Shown: positions 15,342-40,460 of the stretch, piece by piece | Numbering within the stretch: the first letter of the stretch is position 1 | How the letters are laid out: every line of letters begins with the position of its first letter | Origin: a virus | DNA length: 40,460 nucleotides | Direction: 5' to 3' (one strand) | UHGV virus genome: UHGV-1390708 | Made by a program: the position numbers and the translations under genes | Notes under the pieces: generated by a model | Databases searched by the model: none | What the model was told of the DNA's origin: nothing | What the model saw: the letters and a program-made list of their open reading frames with translations, nothing else

Positions 15342-15703
15342 CTATGGATTATTCACAGTTAAGTGATTTTGAAATTAACGTGGCGGTATTCGAAGCCATT
15401 CATAACGGATCACCGGATTACAAAGAAGGTGAGAATGGCGATATGGTGTTTGTCTCATTTGAGGGAGACATTGTAAACGGAGACGCAGTTGAAGTAGAAG
15501 TTGAGCGCGGATCCTTTAACCCATGCGCAAACCCAGCAGACTCATGGCCGATTATTGAAAAATACAGGATTAGCATTATCAATCTCGATGAAGACGAGTG
15601 GGGTGCACGCGGTGTGGCCTACTGTAAATCTAAGCGAGCTATACATGAAAATCCCCTCCGCGCCGCCATGATTGTCTTTCTCATGATGCAGAGAATCCAA
15701 TAA
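15338..15703 (+). CDS. Hypothetical nin-region protein (121 aa)
   Basis: ATG overlaps the ninE stop; acidic protein. Confidence 0.55.
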
Positions 15704-17243: not shown

Positions 17244-17428
17244 ACGCCACAATTCAAACGATACCAGAGCTTCTTATCCAGACACGAGGCAATCAGACCG
17301 AAGTGGCGAGGATGCTTTCCTGCGCAAGAGGAACGGTGCTCAAGTACAACCGAGACAGCAAAGGCGAACGCCACGTAATAGTTAACGGCGTCCTGATGGT
17401 CAAGCAGGGCAAGAGAGGAAGACGATGA
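17240..17428 (+). CDS. ninH: NinH-like protein
   Basis: 'TIPELLIQTRGNQTEVARMLSCARGTVLKY' resembles lambda NinH. Confidence 0.7.
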   Translation: MNATIQTIPELLIQTRGNQTEVARMLSCARGTVLKYNRDSKGERHVIVNGVLMVKQGKRGRR

Positions 17429-18048
17429 GACTCGAAAGCGTAGCTAAATTTCATTCGCCAAAAAGCCCGATGATGAGCGACTCACCACGGGCCACGGCTT
17501 CTGACTCTCTTTCCGGTACCGATGTGATGGCTGCTATGGGGATGGCGCAATCACAGGCCGGATTCGGAATGGCTGCATTCTGTGGTAAGCACGAACTCAG
17601 CCAGAATGACAAACAAAAGACTATCAACTATCTGATGCAATTTGCACACAAGGTATCGGGGAAATACCGTGGCGTGGCAAAGCTTGAAGGAAATACTAAG
17701 GCAAAGGTACTGCAAGTGCTCGCAACATTCGCTTATGCGGATTATTGCCGTAGTGCCGCGACGCCGGGCGCAAGATGCAGAGATTGCCACGGTACAGGTC
17801 GGGCAGTTGATATAGCAAAAACAGAGCAGTGGGGGAGAGTTGTTGAGAAAGAGTGCGGAAGATGCAAAGGTGTCGGCTATTCAAGAATGCCAGCAAGCGC
17901 CGCATATCGCGCTGTAACGATGCTAATCCCAAACCTTACTCAACCCACCTGGTCACGCACTGTTAAGCCGCTGTATGACGCTCTGGTGGTGCAATGCCAC
18001 AAAGAAGAGTCAATCGCAGACAACATTTTGAATGCGGTCACACGTTAG
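17425..18048 (+). CDS. Q: Late-gene antiterminator Q
   Basis: 207-aa ORF MRLESVAKFHSPKSPMMSDSPRATASDSL... matches lambda Q as I recall it. Confidence 0.9.
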   Translation: MRLESVAKFHSPKSPMMSDSPRATASDSLSGTDVMAAMGMAQSQAGFGMAAFCGKHELSQNDKQKTINYLMQFAHKVSGKYRGVAKLEGNTKAKVLQVLATFAYADYCRSAATPGARCRDCHGTGRAVDIAKTEQWGRVVEKECGRCKGVGYSRMPASAAYRAVTMLIPNLTQPTWSRTVKPLYDALVVQCHKEESIADNILNAVTR

Positions 18049-18716: not shown

Positions 18717-19040
18717 ATGAAGATGCCAGAAAAACATGACCTGTTAGCCGCCATTCTCGCGGCAAAGGAACAAGGCATCGGGGCAATCCTTGCGTTTGCA
18801 ATGGCGTACCTTCGCGGCAGATATAATGGCGGTGCGTTTACAAAAACAGTAATCGACGCAACGATGTGCGCCATTATCGCCTGGTTCATTCGTGACCTTC
18901 TCGACTTCGCCGGACTAAGTAGCAATCTCGCTTATATAACGAGCGTGTTCATCGGCTACATCGGTACTGACTCGATTGGTTCGCTTATCAAACGCTTCGC
19001 TGCTAAAAAAGCCGGAGTAGAAGATGGTGGAAATCAATAA
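18717..19040 (+). CDS. S: Holin S (dual-start, S107/S105 type)
   Basis: [39 protein letters not shown]... with Met1-Lys2-Met3 dual start; three transmembrane segments. Confidence 0.9.
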
Positions 19041-19500
19041 TCAACGTAAGGCGTTCCTCGATATGCTGGCGTGGTCAGAGGGAACTGATAACGGACGACA
19101 GAAAACCAGAAATCATGGTTATGACGTCATTGTTGGCGGAGAGCTATTCACTGATTACTCTGATCACCCTCGCAAACTTGTCACGCTAAACCCAAAACTC
19201 AAATCAACAGCCGCCGGGCGTTACCAGCTTCTTTCCCGTTGGTGGGATGCCTATCGTAAGCAGCTTGGCCTGAAAGACTTCTCTCCGAAAAGCCAGGACG
19301 CTGTGGCACTGCAACAGATTAAAGAGCGTGGCGCTTTACCGATGATTGATCGCGGTGATATTCGTCAGGCAATCGACCGTTGCAGTAATATCTGGGCTTC
19401 ACTTCCGGGCGCTGGTTATGGTCAGTTCGAGCATAAGGCTGACAGCCTGATTGCAAAATTCAAAGAAGCAGGCGGAACGGTCAGAGAGATTGAGGTATGA
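19024..19500 (+). CDS. R: Endolysin R (lytic transglycosylase type)
   Basis: [39 protein letters not shown]... matches lambda R as I recall it. Confidence 0.9.
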
Positions 19501-19964
19501 GCAGAGTAACCGCGATTATCTCCGCTCTGGTTATCTGCATCATCGTCTGCCTGTCGTGGGGGGTCAATCATTACCGTGATAACGCCATCGCCTACAAAGA
19601 ACAGCGTGATAAAAAAGTCAGTGAGCTGAAGCAGGCGACTGCCACCATTACTGACATGCAGCAGCGCCAGCGTACTGCTGATGCACTAGATGCTAAATAC
19701 ACGAAGGAGTTAGCTGATGCGAAAGCTGAAAATGATGCTCTTCGGCGCAAGCTTGATAATGGTGGCAGGGTGCTCGTCAAAGGAAAATGCCCTGTGCCAG
19801 CCTCAACCGAAACCTCCCGCGCCTCCGGCATGGGCAATGATGCCACCGTCGAACTCTCTCCAGTTGCTGGACGAAACGTTCTCGGTGTCCGGGACGGAAT
19901 CATCCGCGACCAGACAGCACTGAGAACGCTTCAGGAATACATCAGGACGCAATGCCTTCGATGA
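19497..19964 (+). CDS. Rz: i-spanin Rz
   Basis: N-terminal transmembrane helix ([16 protein letters not shown]) plus coiled coil; lambda-like N-terminus with a divergent C-terminus. Confidence 0.85.
19717..19923 (+). CDS. Rz1: o-spanin Rz1 (embedded in Rz, +1 frame)
   Basis: Lipobox 'LIMVAGCSS' and a proline-rich stretch; entirely nested inside Rz. Confidence 0.7.
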
Positions 19965-20118
19965 TAGCGATAATTTTACTCATCATCCTTCACATCTGGC
20001 TCTGTAGACAGGGTGGTGATCACTTCTGGAGTAAATCCAGATTAAACATCTCATTGCTGATGCTTGATATTGAGCATCTGGCGCGCGGTAAGGGGCTGCG
20101 TTGAGATAAGAGCCAGTT

Positions 20119-20162
20119 CATTACAAATACCAGGATTTAGCCTCGCATTCGCGGGGTTTTTT
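20119..20162 (+). repeat. Junction motif copy 1 (ATTACAAA plus hairpin and T-run)
   Basis: cATTACAAAtaccagg...cctcgcattcgcggggTTTTTT upstream of the DUF2829 gene. Confidence 0.5.
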
Positions 20163-20186
20163 ATTCCCAACTCCATAGGTAATTTT

Positions 20187-20666
20187 ATGACCCAGCATAT
20201 TGGCGTAAAACTGATTAACGCCTTTCCGATGACGAGACAGGCATATAACGATTTTCGTGGCTGGCAGCTTCCTGCCGGAGAAAACGGCGAGGACGAAGGC
20301 TATCTGGTTGAATATCTGGATGGCGGAAAACCTAACACCGATCGCTTTGATGGCTACGTTAGCTGGAGTCCAAAAGAAGTATTCGAAAGGGCTTATCGTC
20401 CGGTATCAGGACTAAGTTTCGGCCTTGCCATGGAAGCGTTAAAACAGGGCAAAAGTTTGCAGCGGGCAGGATGGAATGGGAAAGACCAGTTTGTTTATCT
20501 CGTGAAAGGGGAAAAATTAGCGTCTGCGTTGGGTTATGGCTTTGGCGAATATGTTGGCGAGCCAACTTTCAATGACACGCTTGTATTGAAAAACTCACAG
20601 AACCGCCTTGCTACATGGGTTCCATCCATTGGCGACCTGATGGCTGAAGACTGGCAAATCATTTAA
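20187..20666 (+). CDS. DUF2829 (Tad2-like) domain protein with a unique N-terminal extension
   Basis: C-terminal ~85 aa 'AMEALKQGKSLQRAGWNGKDQFVYLV...ATWVPSIGDLMAEDWQII' fits my recollection of the DUF2829 signature (GWNGKG ... LAEDWE). The track's 20064 start was rejected. Confidence 0.6.
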   Translation: MTQHIGVKLINAFPMTRQAYNDFRGWQLPAGENGEDEGYLVEYLDGGKPNTDRFDGYVSWSPKEVFERAYRPVSGLSFGLAMEALKQGKSLQRAGWNGKDQFVYLVKGEKLASALGYGFGEYVGEPTFNDTLVLKNSQNRLATWVPSIGDLMAEDWQII

Positions 20667-20676
20667 CCATGTAGTC

Positions 20677-20710
20677 ATTACAAAGCCCATCAACGGGTGG
20701 GCTTGATAAT
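20677..20710 (+). repeat. Junction motif copy 2 (ATTACAAA-GCCCA-loop-TGGGCTT-GATAATG)
   Basis: Directly after the DUF2829 gene stop. Confidence 0.5.
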
Positions 20711-20899
20711 GAAACCGGAATTTATTCTAGGCAACCAGTTACGGCAGTACCGCGAAACAACCCAAGCCAGTAAGTGGGGAAATAACACTGGCAGCCACTG
20801 AAAGATGAACCTCCAGCCTTATGGCAAAAAAGATTCTTTGTGGTGGCGGACTGATGGAAAGACATCCTAATCAAGCAACCACTCTACAGGGTCATAATT

Positions 20900-21271
20900 A
20901 TGAACGACCAGCAAATCGAAAAAGAAATTGTTGAGAAAGGCAAAACGGCACCGCGCGTTACGCCAGACCATATCGAAGGAATTATTGCTCAGGAGGCATA
21001 TTTCACAGCAGAGGATGGTGCCTTTGGCAAAGCCATAAAAGCGAAACATACTGGCGGAGAGGTAAACTACCAGCCGCACGAATCACTTTCTCTGCTGACG
21101 TTCTGCGTCCTGGTGCTGCGCAACGGCTTCACCGTCACCGGAGAGAGTTCCTGTGCAAGTCCGGAAAATTTTGATGCAGAAATTGGTCGGAAGATTGCCC
21201 GGCAGAATGCTGTAAACAAAATCTGGATGCTCGAAGGTTACTTGCTGAAGCAGAAGCTAAGCGAACAGTAG
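20900..21271 (+). CDS. Hypothetical cargo protein (123 aa)
   Basis: ORF between the lysis and packaging modules; flanked by the ATTACAAA junction motif. Confidence 0.6.
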   Translation: MNDQQIEKEIVEKGKTAPRVTPDHIEGIIAQEAYFTAEDGAFGKAIKAKHTGGEVNYQPHESLSLLTFCVLVLRNGFTVTGESSCASPENFDAEIGRKIARQNAVNKIWMLEGYLLKQKLSEQ

Positions 21272-21273
21272 TT

Positions 21274-21315
21274 ATTACAAAAGCCATTCCCTACAGAGTG
21301 GCTTTGATAATGGCT
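21274..21315 (+). repeat. Junction motif copy 3 (ATTACAAAA-GCCA-loop-TGGCTTT-GATAATG)
   Basis: Directly after the 123-aa gene stop. Confidence 0.5.
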
Positions 21316-21374
21316 TATACCCTACACGGGATAACTTAACTGATATCCCTTTTAACGGATAAACGGAGCCAACA

Positions 21375-21617
21375 ATGGCAGAGATTATTCCCATGACTGA
21401 AGAACAGAAATTCCAGTTAGAGATTTACAAGCTGGTCATGAACCAGAACGCAGCCGCAGAAGAAGCATTTCAATTCATCGGCACTGACGAGCTGAAGCTT
21501 GAGCTATTCAAAATTCACTTCCAGTCAGGCGGCGCTAATTCAGATATCACGACCCGTACTATCGAAGCGGTGCGTAAATCGAAGGAAGCGTTAGACCTGT
21601 TCACCACCGGAACATAA
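21375..21617 (+). CDS. Hypothetical protein (80 aa)
   Basis: ORF with GGAG Shine-Dalgarno, immediately upstream of the small terminase. Confidence 0.55.
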   Translation: MAEIIPMTEEQKFQLEIYKLVMNQNAAAEEAFQFIGTDELKLELFKIHFQSGGANSDITTRTIEAVRKSKEALDLFTTGT

Positions 21618-21619
21618 AC

Positions 21620-22060
21620 ATGGCGCGCCCAACGAAGTATCAAGAGGCGTATGCCGAACAGGCACGCAAACTGTGCTTGCTGGGCTATACAGACGCCGAA
21701 CTCGCTGACTTCTTTGAAGTTAGCGAGGCAACAATCAACAATTGGAAATTGGAATATCCGGAGTTTTTAGAGTCCATAAAAAAGGGTAAGGCCGTCGCTG
21801 ATGCAGAAGTTAGTGATCGTCTTTATCAACGCGCTATGGGCTTCGTGGCTCCAGACATCGATATTCGTGTTATTGAAAACAGAATTGTCGAAACTCCGCT
21901 TGAGAAGTATTACCCGCCAGATACAACAGCTGCCATCTTCTGGCTTAAGAACCGACAGAAGGATAAATGGCGCGACAAGGTTGATCACGAGCTAACAGGC
22001 AAAGACGGCGGCGCAATCCAGATTGAAACATCACCGATGAGCACTCTATTCGGAAAATGA
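21620..22060 (+). CDS. Terminase small subunit (putative)
   Basis: 146-aa ORF directly upstream of the large terminase; HTH-like 'ATINNWKLEYPEF'. Confidence 0.6.
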   Translation: MARPTKYQEAYAEQARKLCLLGYTDAELADFFEVSEATINNWKLEYPEFLESIKKGKAVADAEVSDRLYQRAMGFVAPDIDIRVIENRIVETPLEKYYPPDTTAAIFWLKNRQKDKWRDKVDHELTGKDGGAIQIETSPMSTLFGK

Positions 22061-39190: not shown

Positions 39191-40460
39191 ATGACAGATT
39201 CAATAAATGCCAATGTTGTAGTAAGCATGCCTTCGCAACTCTTCACTATGGCGCGTTCTTTTAAAGCGGTTGCCAATGGCAAAATTTATATCGGAAAAAT
39301 TGACACTGACCCGGTAAATCCTGAAAACCAGATTCAGGTTTATGTAGAGAACGAAGACGGTTCTCACGTTCCTGTTTCGCAACCAATCATCATTAACGCT
39401 GCTGGTTACCCAGTATATAACGGACAGATTGCCAAATTCGTAACTGTGCAAGGTCATTCGATGGCTGTTTATGATACGTACGGTGCGCAGCAGTTCTATT
39501 TTCCTAATGTGCTGAAGTATGACCCTGACCAGTTCCGGCAGGAGCTAGAGAGAGAGTTTGCAAGCGGGGCATTCCCTGAAACAGTAAAGTATAAGTATGG
39601 ATTACCATCTGTTGTTGATGGTGCCGTATACAGAACTGTTCAGGATAAGCTTGATGATTTTGTGTTCCTTGAGGATTTCGGAGGAAAAGACGACGGAGGT
39701 ATTACTGATAACTCTTTAGCATTTAAGAAGGCGTTTGCATCAGGTGCTAAGAAAATTTATCTCAGAGGATCTGGTGTTTATGCCATGGCTACTCGTGATA
39801 TTGAGTTGCCTGCCAGGTATGAAATTATAGGTAATGCAAAAAATCCAGAGATTAAATATCTAGGTTCTGATTCAACCTTCACTATGTTTACCCTTACAGG
39901 GTCTGGCCCGGCTGCTAGTCAGTGGAAACAGGGTGGCATCTTTAGGGATGTGATCATTTCATCTGATACAGTAATTAACTGGATGGTTTGCCGACATGTC
40001 CAGAACTTAGATTTCGACAGAGTGTACTTTTACAACTCAAGAACTTTAATGAACAACTATCACTATGTTAACTTCTTTAGATGTGAACGTTGGTCGAGCG
40101 GATTTGAAGGCAGATCAGACCTTAACACAGTAAATTTCATTAGCGAGTCTCCAAAATTTTTGATGTGCTTTAGCTCAAACTCACCTATAGATGTTTGGGA
40201 TACAGCAGACCTTAGTATCACTTTCTGCACCTTTTTTGCGGGAGATTATGCAGTACAGACTAAAGTTACTCTGGTATCGCCAACAGCGCTGGACCAATTT
40301 GCTGGATACCAGGTATTTATATCCAACTCTGTTTTTGATGCAGTTTCTGGTAGCGCATGGTTACTTAACGGCATTGCGTACGGATCTATCATTGGTAACT
40401 TTGTGTCATCTGGGCGTGATGCGACAGCTTCCGGTGCTGTTGTTGATGGTGTCCGTTCAA
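39191..40460 (+). CDS. Tailspike protein (3' end truncated by the window)
   Basis: N-terminus 'ANVVVS...[35 protein letters not shown]...VLKYDPDQ' matches the P22 tailspike head-binding domain from memory; the downstream domain differs from P22; no stop before the window end. Confidence 0.85.

Follow-up and report, generated by a model that had tools for sequence, protein, structure and literature searches.

A stem-loop family at accessory-gene boundaries of temperate enterobacterial phages

We analyzed a 40,460-nt stretch of DNA (the window) from a P22/Sf6/HK620-like phage and found that two of its hairpins, E2 and E3, are members of a widespread and apparently undescribed stem-loop family in temperate enterobacterial phages. 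Comparison across phages demonstrated that the hairpin structure is under selection, is read on the gene strand and is placed at cassette boundaries. As for biochemical function, we infer that the element probably serves as a post-transcriptional 3' punctuation hairpin rather than a canonical terminator, possibly as an RNase III-type site, and that it also offers portable homology for cassette exchange. Accessory genes of lambdoid phages have a major landing pad in the lysis-terminase interval. The relevant features of the window were as follows.

20120-20127, 20677-20684 and 21274-21281, plus strand: ATTACAAA 8-mer (sequence search)
20120..20127, plus strand: ATTACAAA box of copy 1, unpaired in the fold, 15 nt past the stop of an Sf6-gp65-like ORF
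20139..20164, plus strand: intrinsic terminator T1 (terminator scan and fold)
20187..20666, plus strand: cargo slot 1 gene with a Tad2-like (PF11195) domain (Pfam E 6.4e-22), between T1 and E2
20675..20712, plus strand: element E2, copy 2 (fold and covariance-model match)
20900..21271, plus strand: cargo slot 2 gene, Phage_gp49_66 (PF13876; Pfam E 4.6e-34), with E3 next
21270..21315, plus strand: element E3, copy 3 (fold and covariance-model match)
21375..21617, plus strand: DUF2560 gene (hkbM / Sf6 gp67 / P22 orf80; Pfam E 1.1e-43)

E2 and E3 had a common architecture of a 6-8 bp outer stem, a 2x2 internal loop (5'CA/5'GA), a 9-10 bp inner stem and a small terminal loop. The outer stem of E2 paired 20675-20680 with 20707-20712 and its inner stem 20683-20691 with 20696-20704 around the loop AACG, with C20681 and A20682 facing G20705 and A20706 in the internal loop. 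In E3 the outer stem was formed by 21270-21277 with 21308-21315 and the inner stem by 21280-21289 with 21296-21305 around CCTACA, and C21278 and A21279 faced G21306 and A21307. The folds had energies of -19.6 kcal/mol (z -3.4) for E2 and -20.6 kcal/mol (z -4.2) for E3. E2 started 10 nt past the stop of the Tad2-like ORF, while ATTACAAA of E3 started 2 nt past the Gp49-family stop. The outer stem read (T)CATTA/TAATG(A), its arms being ATTACAAA and GATAATG, and the internal loop separated it from the GC-rich inner stem. The preliminary description had taken these two arms for separate words around a hairpin; the hairpin was confirmed for copies 2 and 3, but the words are not separate, since both are arms of one outer stem. 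A covariance-model search of the whole window returned only two matches, one of 64 bits at 20671-20716 (E2) and one of 54 bits at 21268-21317 (E3), both sequences being part of the model's own 20-sequence seed alignment. A scan of 19800-21800 against Rfam 15 (E up to 10) gave three matches with E of 1-10, all far below gathering scores and none on E2 or E3. One of them, Proteo-phage-1, lay in the spacer 20713-20899 (187 nt) and was insignificant; the spacer itself, tested as a structured RNA, had a z of -0.28.

The ATTACAAA 8-mer was present at the three junctions (20120, 20677 and 21274) reported in the preliminary description. A fourth occurrence, at 15417, lay inside a coding sequence, had neither a hairpin nor a covariance-model match and was unrelated to the junction copies. 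The 8-mer alone was not enriched in the window (4 occurrences versus 1.67 expected; at least 4 in 8 of 100 shuffles). The composite ATTACAAA-N14-40-TTGATAATG occurred twice (20677-20711 and 21274-21312) and in none of 100 shuffles. Copy 1 had been counted as the same element as copies 2 and 3, a claim that failed: it shares only an 8-10-mer with them and its ATTACAAA is unpaired. Copy 1 consists of a ATTACAAA box with a true intrinsic terminator behind it, and together they bound cargo slot 1 on the left. The terminator, T1, lies 11 nt downstream of the box and consists of an 8-bp stem (AGCCTCGC/GCGGGGTT), the loop ATTC and a T-run at 20159-20164. Scanning and folding detected a GC-rich hairpin at all three copies; a U-tract right after the stem (~5 or more U in the 8 nt directly after it) was found in T1 only, in agreement with the T-run that had been noted at copy 1 alone. 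The GenBank entries of epsilon34 and mEpX1 likewise list Rho-independent terminators after Rz, in or close to the position equivalent to T1. Downstream of a different Rz, ATTACAAA or ATCACAAA also occurred ahead of a terminator of a second type. Similarity to related loci ended exactly after base 20127, the last base of the copy 1 ATTACAAA, in 14 loci, and broke at 20162-20169, immediately past the T-run of T1, in 25 loci. In Sf6, the copy 1 ATTACAAA box with its left flank is fused straight onto the copy-2 hairpin.

We compared E2 and E3 with elements from other phages. The family had an A/U-rich outer stem (ATTA/TAAT or ATTG/CAAT), the CA/GA 2x2 loop, an inner stem of 9 bp (8-10) and a terminal loop that was usually a tetraloop, often UNCG. 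In 20 distinct elements, pairing reached 97.3% with 7 pairs changed on both sides, which was matched by 0 of 500 shuffles, and pairing collapsed in slid controls. Among 126 matches from loci not chosen by the motif, 96.3% of the cells paired and 8 pairs had changed on both sides, among them the two closing pairs of the internal loop (A-U to G-C); the CA/GA loop letters were the same in all gene-strand rows but one. P22 carried a compensated variant, ATTGCAGAGGCC...GGCCTCGATAAT. At 80 loci fetched by their major tail protein (72-100% amino acid identity), ATTACAAAG...CTTGATAAT was exact in all complete sequences and the inner stem covaried. An essential tail gene began 13-17 nt downstream of this tail-gene element, and in the more distant hosts the coding DNA flanking the element was only ~60% identical. 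The variants with ATCACAAA and ATTCCAAA broke the outer stem without compensation, suggesting that the outer stem may be dispensable or that those copies are decaying.

The fold of the sense strand was better than that of the antisense strand by a mean of 3.4 kcal/mol and was more stable in 88% of 73 unique elements; for E2 itself the two were equally stable. G.U pairs accounted for 99 of 663 inner-stem pairs, versus 7 A.C mismatches, and UNCG tetraloops occurred in 24 of the 73 elements, where ~1.6% would be expected. Folding of the sense-strand RNA is favored because of these G.U pairs and UNCG loops. The inner stem was 9 bp long in 51 of the 73 elements. All but one of the 126 model matches were on the gene strand (125/126), and the sole minus-strand match overlapped a plus-strand match. 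A same-strand ORF ended within 70 nt of 79 of the 83 motif-selected elements, most commonly with a gap of 2 nt, and these ORFs belonged to 35 unrelated families. Prophages with the element ranged from Escherichia to Xenorhabdus, including Morganella, Budvicia and Serratia, usually with 1-3 copies per genome. One subtype was present in 757 of 5426 complete E. coli genomes and was annotated in none, and a full-text literature search with the arm sequences found no relevant paper. Tolerance of G.T pairs and the strand bias would also be compatible with a folded single strand of DNA.

The gene contents on either side of the hairpins differed widely among phages. Slot 1, occupied by the Tad2-like gene in the window, elsewhere contained a Rha-like gene, KilA-N plus hkbL or a GIY-YIG-type gene, or was empty, and the content of slot 2 also varied among loci. 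The DUF2560 gene, upstream of the small terminase gene, stayed constant and anchored the cassette region on the right. When 80 loci were fetched via this gene without selection for the motif, a matching element ended ~57 nt upstream of it in nearly all of them. The Rz-DUF2560 interval had ~50 gene arrangements among 85 loci chosen solely for the DUF2560 gene, with the hairpin after many different genes. Of 230 left-hand similarity breakpoints among related loci, which are not independent events, 101 lay at the left edge of copy 2 or copy 3, inside a 7-nt window in either case; similarity started at 20670-20676 (the E2 edge) in 48 loci and at 21271-21274 (the E3 edge) in 53. Chimeric elements with crossovers in the arms were seen, in the right arm. 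Flanks fell into 53 left and 48 right classes, and in 12 pairs of left classes both members occurred with two or more right flanks in common. No hairpin marked the left end of the Gp49 cassette (~20868), indicating that not every cassette junction lies at one. The proposals that the junctions are module boundaries or recombination linkers and that they mark cassette-like insertion sites were supported by the many arrangements, the breakpoints at element edges, the Sf6 fusion and the chimeric crossovers. Since the element is often the sole conserved ~40 bp between unrelated genes, it would also serve as portable homology, and phage or host recombination may swap, delete or insert accessory cassettes at it.

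In the reading that we favor, the family consists of sense-strand RNA stem-loops set directly 3' of ORFs in late operons of temperate Enterobacterales phages. They would work post-transcriptionally, punctuating the message between cistrons as protective 3' hairpins or as targets of an endonuclease. The most specific candidate would be a T7 R1.1-type RNase III site, cleaved at the internal loop. RNase III needs a helix of at least 11 bp from the tetraloop to the cut and has a proximal box of GC, AU/UA, AU and AU/UA, and internal loops confine its cleavage to one strand, leaving a protective 3' hairpin (PMC1540722). In the element, 9 bp are followed by 2 non-canonical pairs, and the base of the inner stem reads G-C, A-U and A-U; in the main class, the series G-C, A-U, A-U, A.G and C.A lies 9-11 positions from the loop. 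On the other hand, the P22 class has G-C at two proximal-box positions where the RNase III rules prefer A-U. The stacked positions numbered 20-21 in E3 and the P22 variant, 18 in the tail-gene type and 17 in E2, below the usual two helical turns.

It is also conceivable, although we hold this only tentatively, that the element is an undescribed cis-acting RNA motif and a universal 3' tag of accessory genes, in which a factor, be it RNase III or a different protein of host or phage, reads the CA/GA loop and the 9-bp stem. If so, a ~40-nt unit would both set transcript fate and make a gene portable, and the tagged genes would include some with anti-defence-type domains. Such a tag would be an RNA-level counterpart of the integron attC site, working via homologous and not site-specific recombination.

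We consider it unlikely that the element is a non-canonical transcription terminator or insulator. It could stop unmodified polymerase in the sense direction, for example in a prophage, and be read through by Q-modified polymerase, or it could block antisense transcription, its complement being a hairpin plus UUUGUAAU. The strong GC-rich hairpins directly past stop codons fit this explanation, as does the presence of a true terminator, T1, in an equivalent position with a layout (GCCTCGC-ATTC-GCGGGGC-TTTTTTAT) resembling that of the element (GCCCATC-TACG-GGTGGGC-TTGATAAT). The antisense tail has 5 U in 8, and intra-operon stem-loops or terminators in P22-like phages have been noted, with a role described as unknown (PMC8022706). 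However, the sense-strand tail after the stem is TTGATAAT in E2 and E3 and CTCGACAATGG in the P22-class variant; for the family it was UUGAUAAU, with CUCGACAAUGG in the P22 class, which is essentially without U. Because the U-tract is absent, and the element can also stand just ahead of an essential tail gene, it would not work as a terminator. Furthermore, the scan called E2 and E3 on neither strand, the sense G.U pairs turn into A.C mismatches on the antisense strand, and neither an invariant CA/GA internal loop nor an inner stem fixed at 9 bp is something that a terminator requires. The earlier suggestion of a shared RNA processing or terminator element was supported as to an RNA element, by covariation, G.U asymmetry and UNCG loops, but not as to copies 2 and 3 being terminators.

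Still less probable is an element that works as DNA, i.e. a folded strand or cruciform read by a recombinase or structure-specific nuclease for site-specific cassette movement; candidates would be attC-like or IS200/IS605-like sites or a homing-endonuclease target. Like integron attC, the element is an imperfect palindrome 3' of each cassette whose outer arms are conserved and whose paired center varies; it folds strand-specifically and occurs in combinatorial arrays; the junctions fall exactly at the arms, and HNH and GIY-YIG endonuclease genes occupy the same slots. Unlike attC, the element, with arms CATTACAAAG / CTTGATAATG and a symmetric 2x2 internal loop, has neither the R/L core consensus (GTTRRRY / RYYYAAC) nor extrahelical bases, and UNCG enrichment is a stability signature specific to RNA. 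We saw no dedicated recombinase alongside it; the integrase of P22-like phages is of the lambda type and is encoded in another part of the genome. The element is also present outside cassette sites, between the major tail gene and the essential tail gene that comes next, and general or phage-encoded homologous recombination explains crossovers in a short conserved sequence. Finally, near-identity across phages among elements at the same genomic position, indicating that much of the similarity is due to common descent, would suit neutral relics of an ancestral intergenic segment that was duplicated and carried with neighboring genes, but this is very improbable and already largely refuted by the compensatory changes in both helices, with the invariant arms beside diverged coding flanks, the spread of the family over bacterial genera and the constrained inner stem also against it.

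Several known signals were considered and set aside. GATAAT as a -10 box had, as read from the sequence, no -35 partner at 16-18 bp, TTGATA as a -35 box had no properly spaced partner hexamer, and the scan was negative for both. The ATG of GATAATG is not a conserved start, as the tail-gene class has A in place of its G and the ORFs that follow are remnants of 9-30 codons. TATCAA, as part of an IHF site, had no TTR at the right spacing. A nut site (boxA CGCTCTT(T)A plus boxB, a 5-bp hairpin with a GNRA-like pentaloop, in early operons) was rejected since GCTCTTC was present in only some left flanks and the element has a 9-bp stem with a tetraloop and a late-operon location. Insertion of the IS200/IS605 type 3' of TTAC was formally compatible with the indel between Sf6 and the window, but T1 stayed constant while the cassettes changed, the cassette contained no right-end hairpin and there was no TnpA. 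The stem sequence varies freely, unlike that of a CRISPR-repeat mimic (RNA anti-CRISPR).

A searchable punctuation element would be a marker for cassette slots and new cargo genes in prophages. It also provides a concrete, testable substrate for an old idea on modular phage evolution, that of the 'linker sequence', and is a candidate new structured RNA in well-studied phages (P22, Sf6, HK620 and HK97-like).

Among known systems, the boundary sequences (bsq) of lambdoid phages, reportedly described for HK620 by Clark et al. in 2001, are likewise short conserved module junctions proposed as recombination foci. They are defined by sequence only, whereas the element is a covarying hairpin. None of bsq2-bsq7 in the Sf6 record AF547987 coincided with the two Sf6 elements (positions 1671 and 2335 of the Sf6 locus L004), and the HK620 stretch examined had no annotated bsq feature. 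Moron-flanking terminators and the stem-loops after lambdoid coat genes are also GC-rich hairpins right after a late-operon gene, and T1 is exactly such a terminator; E2 and E3 differ from them by the missing U-tract, the conserved outer stem and the internal loop. REP/BIME sequences resemble the element as imperfect palindromes of ~35-40 nt 3' of genes, and REPs stabilize the upstream mRNA and are recombination substrates. The element differs in sequence, is phage-borne, is single rather than clustered and has no association with a RAYT transposase; it is not a REP, as the GTAG head occurred in some copies only, where it overlapped the stop codon. The PeSL of T4-type phages is a short repeated intergenic stem-loop motif concentrated where non-essential genes abound, and recombination between its copies inserts, deletes or replaces the genes in between (Arbiol et al. 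2010, PMC2839356). As with PeSL, the element is a repeated stem-loop beside non-essential genes, and indels and replacements have their breakpoints at its copies. PeSL joins a strong sigma-70 promoter to an effective terminator (PMC2839356), whereas the element has no U-tract and a promoter scan at and beside E2 and E3 found no promoter-like site; it also differs in its internal loop, its low copy number and its location in late operons of temperate enterobacterial phages. T7 R1.1 (Pertzev and Nicholson 2006, PMC1540722) belongs to different phages and has a different sequence, and the 17 stacked pairs of E2 and the proximal-box G-C of one class set the element apart from it. Like the element, R1.1 is an intercistronic hairpin with an internal loop, in which sequence is kept near that loop and the upper stem is conserved in structure only. 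Both have ~11 positions from tetraloop to internal loop, with A/U-rich pairs beside the loop in the main class of the element, and putative cleavage of the element would, as in R1.1, leave a protective 3' hairpin.

The window belongs to a P22/Sf6/HK620-like (Lederbergvirus-type) phage and the region studied here is its late operon, with the following features:

17425-18048, Q-like gene
18717-19040, holin
19024-19500, endolysin
19497-19964, Rz, with Rz1 embedded
19952-20104, hydrophobic 50-aa Sf6-gp65-like ORF (Sf6 gene 65 family, phrog_11822), overlapping the Rz end
20139-20164, T1, a standard intrinsic terminator: 8-bp hairpin and T-run
20187-20666, Tad2-like-domain protein (Thoeris anti-defence 2-like, PF11195)
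20675-20712, element E2: TCATTA/TAATGA outer stem, 2x2 internal loop with CA opposite GA, 9-bp GC-rich stem, tetraloop
20900-21271, Phage_gp49_66 family protein
21270-21315, element E3: 8-bp outer stem, CA/GA loop as in E2, 10-bp inner stem, hexaloop
21375-21617, DUF2560, followed by small terminase, large terminase and portal genes

The gp65-like ORF was found in about half of the related loci, always directly upstream of the first ATTACAAA box. The Tad2-like and Gp49-family genes are candidate anti-defence cargo within the late operon; homologues of both proteins in phage Huey carry the label "anti-CRISPR protein" from that record's annotators.

We located the 8-mer ATTACAAA at 20120, 20677 and 21274 (copies 1 to 3). 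The 8-mer was by itself not unusual (4 copies observed against 1.67 expected), while the composite ATTACAAA-N14-40-TTGATAATG occurred twice in the window and in none of 100 shuffles. Repeat finding and folding indicated that both flanking words are the paired arms of one extended hairpin, which confirms and extends the preliminary description of ATTACAAA, a hairpin and GATAATG at copies 2 and 3. The fold energies were -19.6 kcal/mol (z -3.4) for E2 and -20.6 kcal/mol (z -4.2) for E3. Three copies of a single motif had been proposed; ATTACAAA is indeed present at all three sites, but at copy 1 it is unpaired, unlike copies 2 and 3, and is followed after 11 nt by the separate terminator T1. Rho-independent terminators are annotated after Rz, at or near the position matching T1, in the epsilon34 and mEpX1 records. 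When the whole window was searched with a covariance model of 20 distinct elements, to which E2 and E3 themselves belonged, these two were the only matches.

A scan of viral contigs for both arms with any 14-40 nt in between recovered ~54 strong hairpins, whose folding energies set them well apart from chance matches. The inner stems varied with complementarity kept (GCCCATC/GGTGGGC, GGGCGGT/ACTGCCC, GCGTCC/GGGCGC, GGGTATC/GATGCCC and AGCCACTC/GAGTGGCT). Across the 20 distinct elements 97.3% of cells were paired and 7 pairs were changed on both sides, a level reached by 0 of 500 shuffles; when the partner columns were slid, pairing fell to 29-46%. Because this first set had been picked by exact arms, we fetched two samples not selected by the motif. 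The first, 80 loci with DUF2560, gave 126 model matches, of which 125 were on the gene strand and the remaining one overlapped a plus-strand match; nearly every locus had a match ending ~57 nt upstream of DUF2560. Here the arms themselves covaried, with a common class, ATTA-CA-AAGCCC...GGGCTT-GA-TAAT, and a large P22-type class, ATTG-CA-GAGGCC...GGTCTC-GA-CAAT, found in the P22 genome at 40306-40352. Between these classes the pairs closing the internal loop switched from A-U to G-C on both sides, and the loop letters CA/GA were constant in all gene-strand rows except one. In this sample 96.3% of cells were paired and 8 pairs were double-changed, with the score again reached by 0 of 500 shuffles. 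The second sample consisted of 80 loci fetched via the major tail protein of a siphovirus (72-100% amino-acid identity). Every complete sequence carried ATTACAAAG-stem-CTTGATAAT between the tail gene and its downstream neighbour; the arms did not vary and the inner stem covaried. In Xenorhabdus, Morganella, Pantoea, Siccibacter and other prophages the arms were unchanged and the flanking coding DNA was ~60% identical.

Of 5426 complete E. coli genomes, 757 carried one subtype, each at 1-3 sites, and in none of them did an annotated feature cover it. Rfam 15 had no family matching the element and full-text literature searches by arm sequence returned no relevant paper; the element is apparently undescribed as an RNA family. 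In Siccibacter colletis (locus L284, near 5565) its right half is in tandem duplicate (…CTTGATAATGTTGTTACGGTCGCCCTTGATAATG…), which suggests slippage or unequal exchange inside the element. Elements in Bacillota (L265, L279, L229), Nanosynbacter (L227) and Collinsella (L272) MAGs were identical to those of E. coli P22-like phages, as were their immediate flanks (~60 nt compared), and most likely reflect binning contamination.

The preliminary description had read the motif as a module boundary or recombination linker, and a search of related phages supported this. Among 85 DUF2560 loci, where the motif was present at module boundaries, the interval from Rz to DUF2560 had ~50 different arrangements; the genes preceding a hairpin included gp65, Tad2, Gp49, hkbL and several unnamed ORFs, and "empty" forms were gp65-ATTACAAA-T1-E3-DUF2560 (149 nt) and gp65-E-DUF2560. 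We mapped breakpoints by BLAST of 19400-22000 of the window against the DUF2560 loci. Of 230 internal left breakpoints, 48 fell at 20670-20676, the left edge of E2, and 53 at 21271-21274, the left edge of E3; right breakpoints clustered at 20127, the final base of copy 1 ATTACAAA (14 loci), at 20162-20169, the end of the T1 T-run (25), and at 20724 (21). Since the loci are related, these counts are not independent events. In Sf6 the left flank of copy 1 was fused straight to the E2 hairpin; with TCATTACAAA common to both copies, T1 and Tad2 form a block that is cleanly present or absent between direct repeats. Several loci had an E2-type hairpin followed by the E3 right flank, implying a crossover within the shared right arm. 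Over all data we distinguished 53 left and 48 right flank classes, and 12 pairs of left classes each had two or more right flanks in common, a signature of reassortment across the element. The HK97/HK022-like siphovirus mEpX1 carried the E2-Gp49-E3-DUF2560 block after its lysis genes, as in the window. Cassette junctions do not all coincide with hairpins: there is none near 20868, where the Gp49 cassette has its left edge. Taken as a structured cis element at cassette boundaries, the assignment is very probably correct. A role in recombination would require no special enzyme: phage single-strand-annealing recombinases and host recombination could plausibly act on the conserved 35-45 bp between unrelated genes.

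The spacer that separates E2 from the Gp49 gene (20713-20899) contained a decayed ORF (20709-20801) starting from the element ATG and longer in some loci, a ~120-nt block conserved in P22 directly upstream of the P22 element, and mosaic breakpoints at 20724, 20731-20741 and ~20860-20869; RNA structure in this spacer was not significant (z -0.28). Free-standing HNH or GIY-YIG endonuclease genes occupied the same cassette slots or lay just downstream of the element (phage matches H7, H8, H13, H30 and H32; loci L119, L087 and L287), and homing-type double-strand breaks could add to the region's high recombination rate. In P22, 40403-40990, just downstream of the element, has a strong hairpin between an A-run and a T-containing sequence (AAAAAAGCCGCTTACTTAGCGGCTT) and, on the minus strand, an ORF of ~90-100 codons that is not annotated; the arrangement suggests a moron in reverse orientation at the same slot.

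The preliminary description had also raised a shared RNA element, and the covarying helices, the excess of G.U over A.C and the UNCG loops agreed with it. Among 73 unique elements the inner stem had 9 bp in 51 (range 8-10), and 50 had a tetraloop. The UNCG tetraloop, extra stable specifically as RNA, was present in 24 of the 73 against ~1.6% expected, and G.U accounted for 99 of 663 inner-stem pairs with only 7 A.C mismatches. The sense fold was more stable than the antisense fold in 88% of these elements, by a mean of 3.4 kcal/mol. In a sample of 83 elements not picked by genomic context, 79 had a same-strand ORF end at most 70 nt upstream, most frequently with 2 nt between stop codon and ATTACAAA (32 cases). 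The upstream proteins fell into 35 unrelated clusters, including Tad2-like, Gp49-family, hkbL, Rha/KilA-N-type, spanin, major tail and decoration-like proteins; downstream genes included DUF2560, small terminases, HNH endonucleases and a gene at the tail-assembly-chaperone position. The strand, loop and G.U biases, together with the placement 3' of ORFs, point to function in the sense transcript. The element may instead work in a folded single DNA strand, but action in the sense RNA after transcription is the probable reading.

As to what that action is, the ATG within GATAATG is not conserved and was rejected as a start codon, and a promoter scan found no promoter-like site at the elements. 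The proposal of a plain terminator holds for copy 1, where T1 has its T-run, and fails for E2 and E3, which lack a U-tract: the tail after the stem is UUGAUAAU (CUCGACAAUGG in the P22 class), and a terminator scan of both strands called neither. Where the element follows a tail gene, the next gene, an essential one, starts 13-17 nt further on. Another terminator unit, ATCACAAA + 12 nt + AGCCTCGCGATGCGGGGCTTTTT, was seen upstream of DUF2560 behind a different type of Rz (L125-L204, e.g. L136 and L138), so that the ATYACAAA box stands before a true terminator in two left contexts unrelated to each other. According to the phage L genome paper, it is not known what intra-operon terminator-like hairpins do in P22-like phages (PMC8022706).

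By mechanism, the conservation pattern resembles that of T7 RNase III sites: a lower part fixed in sequence with a non-Watson-Crick loop, an upper stem conserved only in structure and fixed in length, and A/U-rich pairs adjoining the loop. The minimal R1.1 substrate needs a helix of at least 11 bp from tetraloop to scissile bond, its proximal box reads GC, AU/UA, AU, AU/UA, and with R1.1-type internal loops only one strand is cut, so that the 3' hairpin left behind protects the RNA upstream of it (PMC1540722). The element has 9 bp plus two non-canonical pairs from loop to outer stem, and G-C, A-U, A-U and then A.G at the base of the inner stem. E3 has 20 stacked positions; against the likeness, E2 has no more than 17, and G-C pairs occupy proximal-box positions in the P22 class. 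By this analogy an RNase III site is possible, though less likely than not.

Of the known systems compared, the PeSL cassette of T4-type phages is closest in function: there, recombination among repeated promoter-plus-stem-loop units shuffles non-essential genes (PMC2839356). Our element has neither the promoter nor the terminator part, and its conserved loop is its own. It also fits the idea of lambdoid "boundary sequences", but in Sf6, which carries two copies of the element, neither copy lies at an annotated bsq feature. Integron attC sites share the architecture and the cassette position, whereas the attC core sequences and enzyme are absent. The element is best filed as a repeated regulatory stem-loop, of putative biochemical role, that doubles as a recombination linker.
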